From the NCBI RefSeq assembly GCF_000027125.1, contig NC_017626.1: 64,000 nucleotides of DNA; one strand, 5' to 3'. The notes under the pieces were generated by a model. That model was given only the letters and a program-made list of their open reading frames with translations, ran no database searches and had not been told where the DNA came from. This document shows positions 16,202-63,909 of this stretch, piece after piece (the stretch's first letter is position 1; the number at the start of each line of letters is the position of its first letter). Source of the stretch: Escherichia coli 042. Its GTDB lineage: Bacteria; Pseudomonadota; Gammaproteobacteria; Enterobacterales; Enterobacteriaceae. The position numbers and the translations under genes were made by a program.

Positions 16202-16206
16202 AGATT

Positions 16207-20095: not shown

Positions 20096-20129
20096 TAAAA
20101 AAAGGCCCCTGTTGAAATTGCAGGGGCCT
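20096..20129 (-). terminator. rho-independent terminator downstream of cutC
   Basis: ggcccctg...caggggcc hairpin flanked by an A run (plus strand). Confidence 0.7.
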
Positions 20130-20175
20130 GGTACGAGCAAGCATCATATTGGGCGACATGATGCAACGGTAAAAA

Positions 20176-20931
<756 letters not shown>

Positions 20932-33646: not shown

Positions 33647-33673
33647 TTATCGGCAAGGAGGGGGGAAACTTTA
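33647..33673 (-). promoter_or_regulatory. sigma-28 (FliA) class 3 promoter of the tar-tap-cheRBYZ operon
   Basis: On the minus strand reads TAAAGTTT-N11-GCCGATAA, a perfect match to the sigma-28 consensus, about 30 bp upstream of the tar start. Confidence 0.85.
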
Positions 33674-33759
33674 TTGCTGATGCCACCCGCCGCGAAACTG
33701 AAATAAAAAACCCGATGCGCAGGTCATCGGGTTCATTGCAATTGAGGAAATCAGGAGAA

Positions 33760-51756: not shown

Positions 51757-51951
51757 ACGCTTTTCCTTGTGGATCTCAACTCGCCAGCACCTATCTTACA
51801 TGTCGGTCCGTAACAGAGATACTTTTTGAGTGGCTTTGCCGGTGATTAAAAATTAAGGAGGGTGTAACGACAAGTTGCAGGCACAAAAAAACCACCCGAA
51901 GGTGGTTTCACGACACTGCTTATTGCTTTGATTTTATTCTTATCTTTCCCA

Positions 51952-52038
51952 TGGTACCCGGAGCGGGACTTGAACCCGCACAGCGCGAACGCCGAGGGAT
52001 TTTAAATCCCTTGTGTCTACCGATTCCACCATCCGGGC
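51952..52038 (-). tRNA. leuZ: tRNA-Leu (anticodon UAA)
   Basis: 87-nt type II tRNA; the minus strand reads GCCCGGATGGTGGAATCGGTAGACACAAGGGATTTAAAATCCC...GGGTACCA with encoded CCA. Confidence 0.95.
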
Positions 52039-52050
52039 TCGGGAAGAAAG

Positions 52051-52124
52051 TGGAGGCGCGTTCCGGAGTCGAACCGGACTAGACGGATTTGCAATCCGCT
52101 ACATAACCGCTTTGTTAACGCGCC
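52051..52124 (-). tRNA. cysT: tRNA-Cys (anticodon GCA)
   Basis: 74 nt; the minus strand reads GGCGCGTTAACAAAGCGGTTATGTAGCGGATTGCAAATCCGTCTAGTCCGGTTCGACTCCGGAACGCGCCTCCA. Confidence 0.95.
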
Positions 52125-52178
52125 AAATTCTTCAGGCCTTTCAGCCAGACATCCGCTTGACGCCGATGTCTTTTAAAC

Positions 52179-52254
<76 letters not shown>

Positions 52255-52405
52255 ATTCATCAAGCAATCAGTTAATCACTTGATTTTATTATCGTCTGGC
52301 AATCAGTGCCGCCGTTCGATGCGTTGCATTCTACTTACCTGGCGCGATGAGTCAACGATATTTTTCACCACTTTTGATCGTTTGCTGAAAATTGCGCCGA
52401 AACGA

Positions 52406-56968: not shown

Positions 56969-57197
56969 AGTAAACCGCAACGCCCCTGAGAGTGAGTATC
57001 ATTTATAATGATAATTCAAACTATCACATAAATAAGATTTATATATAATTTATATTATTCAGGCAATGAATTACTTTTGCAAGCCATCGCATTCTCTTAT
57101 GTTATTAATGAGTTATGCTGATTTGTTAAGCACTTTTATTACGCTTGAAATGGCGTCCCGCCCCGACAAGTGAATCGTCGGGGCTGATTTTTTCTTA

Positions 57198-57950
57198 TTA
57201 TTGCAGCAGAAACTTCTCGAGGAACTGGCGGGTGCGAGGCTGCTGAGGATCGGCAAATAACGCTTTTGCGGCCCCCTGCTCGACTATCCGCCCCTGGTCC
57301 ATAAAGATCGCCCGGTCCGCAACATCCCGGGCAAAGCTCATTTCGTGCGTCACAATCACCATTGTGCGCTTTTCCTGCGCCAGCTGACGGATGGTGTTCA
57401 GGACTTCGCCCACCAGCTCTGGATCCAGCGCCGACGTTGGCTCGTCAAACAAAATCACCTCAGGACGCATAGCCAGCGCTCGCGCAATCGCGACACGCTG
57501 CTGTTGACCGCCAGACAAACGACGTGGATAGCTGGTTTCTTTACCTTCCAGCCCAACTTTCGCCAGCAGCTCGCGAGCGCGCGCCGTGGCCTCTTCTTTC
57601 GGTTCGCCTTTGACGATCACCGGCCCTTCAATAATGTTTTCCAGCACCGTACGATGCGGAAACAAATTAAAGTTCTGGAAGACAAACCCGACGTGCTGAC
57701 GCAACTGGCGAATCAGCGATTTTTGCTGACTTAATGAACGTGCAGTATCAATGGTGATATCGCCAACGGTGATGGTTCCCGCTTCCGGTTGTTCCAGCAG
57801 ATTTATGCTGCGTAGCAACGTGGTTTTGCCGGAACCACTTGGACCGATAATTGCCACTACTTCGCCAGGCTTCACCTCAAGGTCGATACCGTGCAGCACC
57901 GTCTGACCATGGAATTTTTTCACCAGGTTCTTAACTTCAATGGCACTCAT
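57198..57950 (-). CDS. tcyN: L-cystine ABC transporter ATP-binding protein (YecC)
   Basis: 250 aa; Walker A GPSGSGKTT. Confidence 0.93.
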   Translation of the reverse strand: MSAIEVKNLVKKFHGQTVLHGIDLEVKPGEVVAIIGPSGSGKTTLLRSINLLEQPEAGTITVGDITIDTARSLSQQKSLIRQLRQHVGFVFQNFNLFPHRTVLENIIEGPVIVKGEPKEEATARARELLAKVGLEGKETSYPRRLSGGQQQRVAIARALAMRPEVILFDEPTSALDPELVGEVLNTIRQLAQEKRTMVIVTHEMSFARDVADRAIFMDQGRIVEQGAAKALFADPQQPRTRQFLEKFLLQ

Positions 57951-58615
57951 TTTGGTTCTCTCTCCTGGCGATTAAGTTGATTCTCAAAATGGTTCTGCAA
58001 CGTCGATAACACTGTCGCCATGATCCAGTAGATGAGCGAAGCCGCCAGATACATGGTGAACACCTCCAGCGTACGCGAGGTAATCAACTGCGCCTGACGG
58101 AAAAGCTCCGGCACCTGGATTGTCGCGGCCAGCGACGTATCTTTTACCAGGCTGATAAAGCTGTTCGACAGCGGCGGCAACGCCACCCGCGCCGCCTGTG
58201 GCAAAATCGCGCGACGCATGGTCTGCCACGGCGTCATACCAATACTGGCAGCAGCTTCCCACTGACCTTTATCAATAGAAGAAATGGCGGCGCGCAGCGT
58301 TTCGGCAGCATAGGCGGCAGTGTTTAGCGACAGACCAATCATTGCTGACGGAATGGGATCTAGTTCGATGCCAAACTGCGGCAAGCCGTAATAGATCATA
58401 AACAGTTGGGCGATGAGCGGCGTACCACGAAAAATAGAGATATAAAAACGCGCCAGCCAGCGCACGGGCCAGATTGGCGAAAGGCGCATCAGCGCGAGAA
58501 TAAACCCTAGCAGTAAGCCAAAAAACATGCCGCCGATACTGAGTTGCAGCGTATACCCAGCCCCTTTCAGCAGGAACGGCAAGGAATCAATAACCAGTTG
58601 TATACTTTCTTGCAT
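57947..58615 (-). CDS. tcyL: L-cystine ABC transporter permease (YecS)
   Basis: 222-aa membrane protein; 4-nt overlap with tcyN. Confidence 0.93.
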   Translation of the reverse strand: MQESIQLVIDSLPFLLKGAGYTLQLSIGGMFFGLLLGFILALMRLSPIWPVRWLARFYISIFRGTPLIAQLFMIYYGLPQFGIELDPIPSAMIGLSLNTAAYAAETLRAAISSIDKGQWEAAASIGMTPWQTMRRAILPQAARVALPPLSNSFISLVKDTSLAATIQVPELFRQAQLITSRTLEVFTMYLAASLIYWIMATVLSTLQNHFENQLNRQEREPK

Positions 58616-61205: not shown

Positions 61206-61925
61206 TTATAACTTACCCAGTTTAGTGCGTAACCGTTTAATGGCCTGGCTGTGTAACTGACTGACCCGCGATTCCCCGACCTCCAGCACCGCGCCAATCT
61301 CTTTGAGATTCAGCTCTTCCTGGTAATAGAGGGTTAATACCAGTTTTTCGCGCTCCGGCAACGTTTCGATAGCTTCCATCACCCGCTGGCGCAGATTACT
61401 GTCCAGCAGCTGTTGTAGCGGGTTTTCTCGCTGATGATCATCAGTAACCAGTTCAATGCTATCGCCGTGCTCTTCGCGCCACTCATCGTAGGAGAAGAGC
61501 TGGCTGTTATTGGTGTCGAGCAACATTTGGCGATAATCGGCAATATCGATCCCTAAACGTTCCGCTACCTCAGTTTCCGTGGCGTTACGGCCAAGTTCCT
61601 GCTCCAGTTGCCCTATTGCCTGTGCCACTTCACGCGCGTTGCGTCGCACGCTGCGCGGCACCCAGTCACGGCTGCGAAGTTCATCCAGCATAGCGCCACG
61701 GATACGCTGCACTGCGTAAGTTGTAAATGCCGTTCCTTGTAGGGCGTCATAGCGTTCGACGGCATTAAGTAACCCAATGCCGCCCGCCTGTAGCAGATCG
61801 TCAAGTTCCACGCTCGCGGGCAGTCGAACCTGCAGGCGCAATGCTTCGTGACGCACCAGCGGGACATAACGCTGCCACAGCGAGTGTTTATCCATTACAC
61901 CTTCAGCGGTATAGAGTGAATTCAC
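61206..61925 (-). CDS. fliA: flagellar sigma factor sigma-28 (FliA)
   Basis: 239 aa; GTG start (VNSLYTAEGVMDKHSLWQRYVPLV). Confidence 0.96.
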   Translation of the reverse strand: MNSLYTAEGVMDKHSLWQRYVPLVRHEALRLQVRLPASVELDDLLQAGGIGLLNAVERYDALQGTAFTTYAVQRIRGAMLDELRSRDWVPRSVRRNAREVAQAIGQLEQELGRNATETEVAERLGIDIADYRQMLLDTNNSQLFSYDEWREEHGDSIELVTDDHQRENPLQQLLDSNLRQRVMEAIETLPEREKLVLTLYYQEELNLKEIGAVLEVGESRVSQLHSQAIKRLRTKLGKL

Positions 61926-62043: not shown

Positions 62044-62070
62044 ACAGAAAAAACCCCGCCGGTGGCGGGG
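62044..62070 (-). terminator. rho-independent terminator downstream of fliC
   Basis: ccccgccggtggcgggg hairpin with an A run on the plus strand (T run on minus). Confidence 0.7.
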
Positions 62071-62101
62071 AAGTACGTTGCTGACAAATTACGCTTCATG
62101 T

Positions 62102-62200
62102 TGCCGGATGCGGCGTAAACGTCTTTTCCGGCCTACAAAAATTAGCAAATTCAATAAATTGTAATTCACCTTGTAGGCCTGATAAGCGCAGCGCATCAGG
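62102..62200. repeat. REP elements (BIME) in the fliC 3' flank
   Basis: tgccggatgcggcgtaaacg...ccggcctaca and tgtaggcctgataagcgcagcgcatcaggca. Confidence 0.6.
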
Positions 62201-62244
62201 CAATTTGGCGTTGCCGTCAGTCTCAGTTAATCAGGTTAGGACGA

Positions 62245-63909
62245 TTAACCCTGCAGCAGAGACAGAACCTGCTGCGGTACCTGGTTGGCTTTTGCCAGCA
62301 CGGAGTTACCGGCCTGCTGAATGATCTGCGCTTTCGACATGTTGGACACTTCGGTCGCATAGTCGGCGTCCTGAATACGGGACTGCGCTTCAGACAGGTT
62401 GGTAGTGGTGTTGTTCAGGTTGGTGACTGCGGAATCCAGACGGTTCTGGATAGCACCCAGGGAAGAACGGAATTTGTCGATAGACGCGATAGCGTCATCC
62501 AATGCTGCCAGCGGGTTGGTAGTAGCTTCAGATTCACTAGTTGTATTAGTCGTTAAGTTACCATTGGCACTTACATAGATAGCTTTACTGGTAGCCGCAT
62601 TTTCACCACTAGTAATAGTGCCATCAGCTTGAGCAAAATACTCGGCAGGAGTTTTGCTCACTTTTCCATCGACTAAATACGCTGATGCAGCAGTGCCATT
62701 ATTGACTGTATATGTCGCAGGTAAAGTTACACCAACAGTTGCAGTGTAAGTCTCATTTTTAACGGCGTTAGCAAACGTTGAAGCATCAACAGAAATATCT
62801 ACCCCATCAAACTTTGTCGTATTAGCAGTAAATGTACCTTTATCTGTTGTAATGACTGTTTTGGCATTAGCATTGTTTGCCATTAAGTCAGACAGTTTAG
62901 CTTGAGTATCAGTGCCTGCGTTAGTTTTACTTAAGTTACCAGTATCATCAAGATAGAGAGCGGCACCGTCATCAGCAGCAGTTAAAGAACCATCTTTAGC
63001 AATAATGACTTTTTGCTCTTGAGCTGTTGTACCGTTGCCAATACTTACTGTTGCAGCAGTGGTACCACCCGCTTCAGGATTCAGGAATGCCGCCAGTTGA
63101 GTCGCATCAACTGAAGCAGAAGCCGTATATGTGTTAGTATCTTTATGATAAGTATATTCCACTGGCGTACCAGGGGCAGCTGCACCAAAACCAACATCTG
63201 CCTCCGTGGAAACTTTACTGCCATCAACACCAGCTACCGCATTCAAAATATCCGTGCTACTTGCGACGGCTTTGTCAGCAATATATCTATTAACTCCAGC
63301 TGTAGTGACCCCCGTATTATCGAGTTTTAAACCAACCATATCTTTAAGTGTTGCAGCAGTATTGGCTGTTTCACCTTCGCCATTCACGTTAAAACCAGCC
63401 AGATTCAGCGTATCAGAGTCAATTTTCTTCAGATCAATCGTGATGGTTTCACCATCATTTGCGCCGACCTGAATTTTCATTGAACCATCTTTGGACAGCA
63501 CGTTCACGCCGTTGAACTGGGTCTGACCGGATACGCGGTCAATTTCGTCCAGACGAGATTTGATTTCGTCCTGGATGGAGTCCAGGTCAGAATCGGAGTT
63601 AGTCCCTGTAGTGGCCTGAACCGTCAGTTCACGAATACGCTGTAAGTTGTTGTTGATTTCGGACAGCGCGCCTTCAGTGGTCTGTGCAACAGAAATACCG
63701 TCATTGGCGTTACGTGCAGCCTGAGTCAGGCCTTTAATATTAGAAGTAAAACGGTTAGCAATCGCCTGACCTGCGGCGTCATCCTTCGCGCTGTTAATAC
63801 GCAAGCCAGAAGACAGACGCTCGATAGAACTCGACAGCGCAGACTGGTTCTTGTTGATATTATTTTGAGTGATCAGCGAGAGGCTGTTGGTATTAATGAC
63901 TTGTGCCAT
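62245..63909 (-). CDS. fliC: flagellin FliC (554 aa; non-K-12 H-antigen central domain)
   Basis: The conserved N-terminus ([54 protein letters not shown]) and C-terminus ([67 protein letters not shown]) flank a Thr/Ala/Asn-rich variable middle region. Confidence 0.95.

Follow-up and report, generated by a model that had tools for sequence, protein, structure and literature searches.

The flagellin gene described here is almost certainly the chromosomal fliC in its usual place and in its H18 antigenic form, a catalogued allele that moves by recombination. In the 64,000-nucleotide stretch of DNA analysed (hereafter, the window) it is an uninterrupted ORF of 554 codons with an ATG start, as given in the ORF list (Table 1). 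Three Pfam families match the product, all well over their cut-offs: Flagellin_N (PF00669) at residues 5–140, scoring 158.5 bits (cut-off 26.6); FliC (PF12445), a family for the middle of enterobacterial flagellins, at residues 344–458; and Flagellin_C (PF00700) at residues 468–552, scoring 109 bits (cut-off 23). The product has the arrangement of the flagellin family, in which N- and C-terminal helical domains stand on either side of a variable centre, and the first-pass annotation, made from the sequence alone, had correctly described it as a 554-aa flagellin encoded by fliC. The conserved ends of flagellins fold into the D0/D1 coiled-coil core, which serves export, polymerisation, supercoiling and recognition by TLR5. 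The genes downstream, encoded on the same strand, are fliA (61206-61925), fliZ and tcyJ. The order tcyJ-fliZ-fliA-fliC is that of K-12 MG1655 and of strain 118UI, which identifies the feature as fliC in its usual place; fliD lies outside the window, past its end. Two plus-strand ORFs within fliC, 63145-63330 and 63206-63472, have nothing in their support and were rejected as spurious.

Table 1. Features of the fliC locus, with window coordinates and the basis of each assignment
Feature	Position	Strand	Basis
fliC CDS, H18 flagellin allele, 554 aa + stop	62245..63909	-	ORF, Pfam, nucleotide identity
N-terminal conserved region, aa 1-165, D0/D1 core (export, polymerisation)	63415..63909	-	K-12 identity, GC3
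Central hypervariable region, aa 166-462, H18 outer domains, homologous to H6 D2-D4	62524..63414	-	K-12 and H6 alignments
C-terminal conserved region, aa 463-554 + stop, D1/D0 core	62245..62523	-	K-12 identity, Pfam
D4 dimer-site codons (aa 325-328)	62924-62935	-	motif kept
D4 dimer-site codon (aa 329)	62921-62923	-	Thr329, exception to the kept motif
fliC 5' untranslated region with presumed FliA (sigma-28) -10 element GACGATAA	63910..64000	-	91/91 nt identical to K-12
fliC 3' untranslated region, homologue of the K-12 FliX small RNA	62048..62241	-	K-12 annotation, alignment

The division of the gene into three parts follows from comparison with the 498-aa FliC of MG1655, which served as the K-12 (H48) reference. 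Residues 1–165 and 463–554 are 97–100% identical to K-12 FliC, while identity across the 297 residues between them (aa 166–462) is about 20%. In bins of 20 residues, identity is 0.85–1.0 over residues 1–160, 0.05–0.35 over residues 181–460, and 0.75–1.0 from residue 461 to the end. At the nucleotide level, the part encoding residues 1–165 is 90.5% identical to K-12 and the first 134 nt are 100% identical, while the centre is unalignable. This contrast between the ends and the centre is far beyond chance. The outer domains of K-12 H48 flagellin fall into another fold class, one like that of Salmonella (PMC8931119), which is why the centre of the present gene cannot be aligned to them. The earlier statement that the middle of the protein is not the K-12 sequence is thus borne out, and an exact match of the centre to K-12 FliC, which would have told against it, was looked for and is not there. 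The span proposed for the variable part, 62530-63400, corresponds to residues 170–460; it falls inside the central block, with limits at most 14 nt off. The centre had also been described as rich in Thr, Ala, Asn and Gly, and this agrees with its composition (16.8% Ala, 16.2% Thr, 9.1% Gly and 8.1% Asn, together 50% of the block). The description of the terminal thirds as D0/D1 regions needs amendment in one respect: the match to these regions stands, both by Pfam and by identity to K-12, but the conserved parts are not thirds, as they comprise 165 aa (30%) and 92 aa (17%) of the protein.

The first-pass annotation had taken the centre to be the H-antigen variable region that gives the strain its H type, and had left the type unnamed. 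That reading holds, and the type can now be given. Many complete E. coli genomes, RM14516, 118UI and EcPF15 among them, carry a fliC that matches the present gene over all 1665 nt (100% identity). RM14516 has been published as O17:H18, phylogroup D, ST6507 (PMC10562709), and 118UI is ST69, phylogroup D (PMC8900328). A second typed strain, MS14384, published as OgN12:H18 (PMC10024524), carries a central block 98.1% identical to the present one. The centre is therefore identical or near-identical to those of strains typed H18. The protein is exactly that of RefSeq WP_000079726.1 and UniProt Q842D0, and the RefSeq protein is recorded on at least 1000 contigs. Megablast with the central block matched 218 complete E. 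coli genomes out of 5426 (about 4%), chromosomal in every case and each time with at least 95% identity; since all matches are of this kind, the block makes up a single, discrete allele class. The allele is thus already known and catalogued, and was not created in this strain. The H18 label derives from strains that carry the identical gene and whose H types have been published, in at least one case from in silico typing, and H18 is here a genotype; nothing contradicts the identification. A literature search by accession found no paper under Q842D0 or WP_000079726. One source (PMC7952442) offers sequence type context but gives no H type for 118UI or NMBU-W13E19, and another (PMC7427188) gives no serotype for EcPF15. 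The assignment of an H18 genotype aids epidemiological typing of the strain. Among phylogroup D lineages of the extraintestinal and enteroaggregative kinds, ST69 for example, H18 is a typical antigen.

The genomes sharing the allele also provide evidence on how it spreads. The 27–64 kb part of the window was aligned to four H18 genomes (GTEN_23, 118UI, RM14516 and EcPF15) and the differences were counted; within fliC there are none in any of the four. Against GTEN_23, 342 differences (1.4%) are found at 28–52 kb and only 3 from 52.0 to 64 kb, when a patch at tcyN (57.0–58.1 kb, 24 differences) is set apart. Against 118UI, to which RM14516 and EcPF15 are nearly identical here, the counts are 466 (1.9%) at 27–52 kb and 62 (0.78%) at 53–61 kb, and from 61.1 to 64 kb the window differs from all three by a single base (62162, outside the CDS). 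A divergence of 0.78% predicts about 13 differences over the 1665 nt of fliC, and none is seen; the Poisson probability is about 2e-6, for block boundaries picked after the data had been seen. Moreover, across positions 1-52000 the window is at most 99.1% identical to any of the 5426 complete E. coli genomes, so its source lineage is absent from that set. Thus, the background lineage of the window is distinct, yet its fliC is exactly the same. The identity of fliC in genomes whose flanks are 0.8–1.9% apart supports the view that homologous recombination has carried the H18 allele from lineage to lineage, apparently in blocks that range from about 3 kb to 12 kb or more, and is in line with the horizontal replacement that had been proposed for the locus. 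In this model, fliC-H18 would move among E. coli lineages when crossovers fall within its conserved ends or in the DNA flanking it.

At 52 kb, a recombination block has one of its boundaries close to the leuZ-cysT-glyW tRNA cluster. This mosaic boundary is sharp (51950-52300) and lies beside the tRNAs Leu(taa)-Cys(gca)-Gly(gcc). On its left side the window is 1.4–1.9% away from every H18 genome compared, and on its right side it is near-identical to GTEN_23. The patch of 24 differences inside tcyN (57000-58103), within a 12-kb stretch otherwise identical to GTEN_23, looks like a small separate recombination tract. Farther away, in the cmoB-torZ spacer at 16204, genome GF43 carries a 130-bp insertion, probably a repetitive extragenic element, which the window does not have.

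The expression signals around the gene closely resemble those of K-12. The sequence GACGATAA upstream of the start codon is presumably the -10 part of the sigma-28 promoter of fliC, as in K-12; the corresponding -35 element lies beyond the window end. The 319-nt spacer downstream of fliC is 94.7% identical to that of K-12, in whose record the ncRNA fliX is annotated directly after fliC. It contains two REP-like palindromes and an intrinsic terminator, CCCCGCCACCGGCGGGG followed by a T run, with a stem at 62054-62070 that has seven GC pairs. FliA (sigma-28) would transcribe fliC from the same promoter sequence as in K-12, and the transcript would stop at this strong terminator, past the FliX-like 3' untranslated region. 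Position 62162, between the palindromes within the FliX homologue, carries a base specific to the window; K-12 and 4/4 H18 genomes have another. An Rfam scan gave no family in the fliC region, and FliX was recognised by the K-12 annotation alone. Elsewhere in the window the scan placed two small RNAs at their expected core-genome positions, MicL at 20097-20404 (minus strand, 368 bits) and C0465 at 33663-33740 (plus strand, 100 bits).

The structure of the variable centre can be approached through its homologues. The closest solved structure is the flagellin of EPEC O127:H6 (7SN7/7SQJ), matched over the full length with E = 2e-238 and with identities of 98% (aa 1–165), 57% (aa 166–462) and 95% (aa 463–554). 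The central alignment is colinear, with only 12 gap columns, and the H18 outer domains are accordingly related in sequence to domains D2-D4 of H6. An Achromobacter flagellin (7SQD) is likewise matched over the full length in a single stretch, with E = 2e-112. In view of the 57% colinear identity to 7SQJ, the fold of H6 D2-D4 should be transferable to H18, which very probably has outer domains of the H6 type. The 297 central residues would then form surface-exposed outer domains bearing the H18 epitopes.

In H6 filaments, the outer domains pair into tetramers, forming an outer-domain sheath with a seam; those of H7 form dimers rather than tetramers, and the H7 sheath lengthens tumbles and helps motility (PMC8931119). 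The H18 sequence at the D4 dimer site aligns to YVDDAGNLTTNNAG of H7. One of the two interface Asn residues of H7, N319, corresponds to N325 of H18, and the other, N323, corresponds to Thr329. In Achromobacter, Glu occupies this second D4 interface position and a sheath is formed nonetheless (PMC8931119). To judge by the 57% identity, H18 filaments likely form an H6-like sheath, in which the outer domains would probably pair as they do in the H6 filament. We see about an even chance that the geometry of this sheath, owing to Thr329, is unlike that of the solved H6 filament and that a fliC-H18 block of 3–12 kb has recently spread among phylogroup D extraintestinal lineages, namely those of the ST69-like strains, of GTEN_23 and, as a so far unsampled one, of the window itself.

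Base composition, too, sets the centre of the gene apart. A comparison of GC content and codon usage between the centre and the ends, suggested in the first-pass annotation, gave GC3 values of 0.253 for the centre, 0.539 for the N-terminal part and 0.674 for the C-terminal part. Counting fliC, the window has 35 long ORFs, with a mean GC3 of 0.553; in the other 34 no 297-codon segment falls below 0.434. The central block of K-12 fliC is equally low (0.257); low GC3 is therefore a general and long-known trait of the centres of E. coli fliC genes, not the mark of a recent import into this strain. Could amino-acid content and codon selection in a highly expressed gene have produced this composition, with purifying selection accounting for the identity between lineages? 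Flagellin expression is indeed very high, and T-ending codons for Ala, Thr and Gly are common in the centre (GCT 25, ACT 22, GGT 17). However, the centre uses the non-preferred codons AAT, GAT, TAT and TTA (AAT:AAC 16:8, GAT:GAC 19:3, TAT:TAC 9:1, TTA:CTG 7:5), and ACA and AGT are frequent in it, whereas the ends prefer AAC (21:6 against AAT), GAC (12:7 against GAT) and CTG (19 of 23 Leu codons) and favour TCC and TCT. Codon bias for high expression was on these grounds rejected as the cause of the low GC3. Nor would purifying selection keep synonymous sites identical over 1665 nt in genomes whose flanks differ by 0.8–1.9%. This combination of selective causes is, in our opinion, highly unlikely, and recombination remains the preferred explanation. 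Relative to K-12, synonymous differences are absent from the first 134 nt and become denser toward the centre, a gradient expected if crossovers fall in the conserved ends, as the general model for fliC holds (PMC7018530).

Two further readings concern the antigen itself. Since H6 flagellin is the best match among solved structures, of similar length (548 against 554 aa) and 75% identical overall, the gene might specify a different H type within this structural family, such as H6 or a close relative, rather than H18. The resemblance is, however, much weaker in the part that matters, the central block being just 57% identical to H6. Also against another type stand the complete identity of the gene to that of an O17:H18 strain, the 98.1% identity of the centre to that of a second H18 strain, and the uniformly high identity (at least 95%) of the 218 genomes found with the centre, which mark a discrete allele class; a type other than H18 is, of all the readings considered, the least probable. 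Somewhat less remote, although still improbable, is that the gene is silent or that its product is not the expressed antigen, the strain being non-motile or using a flagellin from a second locus (flkA, fllA or flmA). E. coli is known to include non-motile (H-) variants and to have alternative loci for flagellin (PMC7018530), and the window shows only one end of flagellar region III. Yet fliC is intact, with a 5' region identical to that of K-12; the ORFs of fliA, fliZ, flhD and flhC are intact as well; the flhD-uspC spacer has the same length as in other genomes and contains no insertion sequence; and plasmid-borne matches to fliC account for just 2 of 5405 places in complete genomes. As far as can be read from the DNA, nothing suggests a silent fliC, and an expressed chromosomal H18 gene remains the favoured interpretation.

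The locus is a textbook case of antigen-gene mosaicism, combining conserved ends, a compositionally foreign centre, and identity of the allele across diverged backgrounds. With K-12 H48 (PDB 8CXM; b1923) it shares the locus, the promoter region over 91/91 nt, the ends of the protein, a 3' untranslated region including FliX (95% identical), and a similarly low central GC3; the central block is unrelated (about 20% identity) and, in K-12, 56 residues shorter. With the flagellin of EHEC O157:H7 (PDB 7SN4) it shares the conserved ends, partly homologous outer domains and the D4 dimer motif, in an alignment that extends to query residue 420. The H7 protein is longer, at 585 aa, its central alignment is weak and gapped, and its E value is 4e-155, compared with 2e-238 for H6. 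EPEC H6 flagellin is a closer relative: its D0/D1 regions are 95–98% identical, and its centre is colinear, of near-equal length, and retains the D4 dimer-site sequence. It differs from H18 in 43% of the central residues, which is enough for a separate H antigen, in indels of 2–4 residues, and in the second interface Asn, present in both H6 and H7, where H18 has Thr329. Closest of all are the other carriers of fliC-H18 (Q842D0; WP_000079726.1), which include ST69-like, ST394 and other phylogroup D strains typed H18. They share the protein residue for residue, all 1665 nt of the gene, and its site between fliA and fliD; nothing in the gene sets the window apart from them, and nearby it is distinguished by the one base at 62162.
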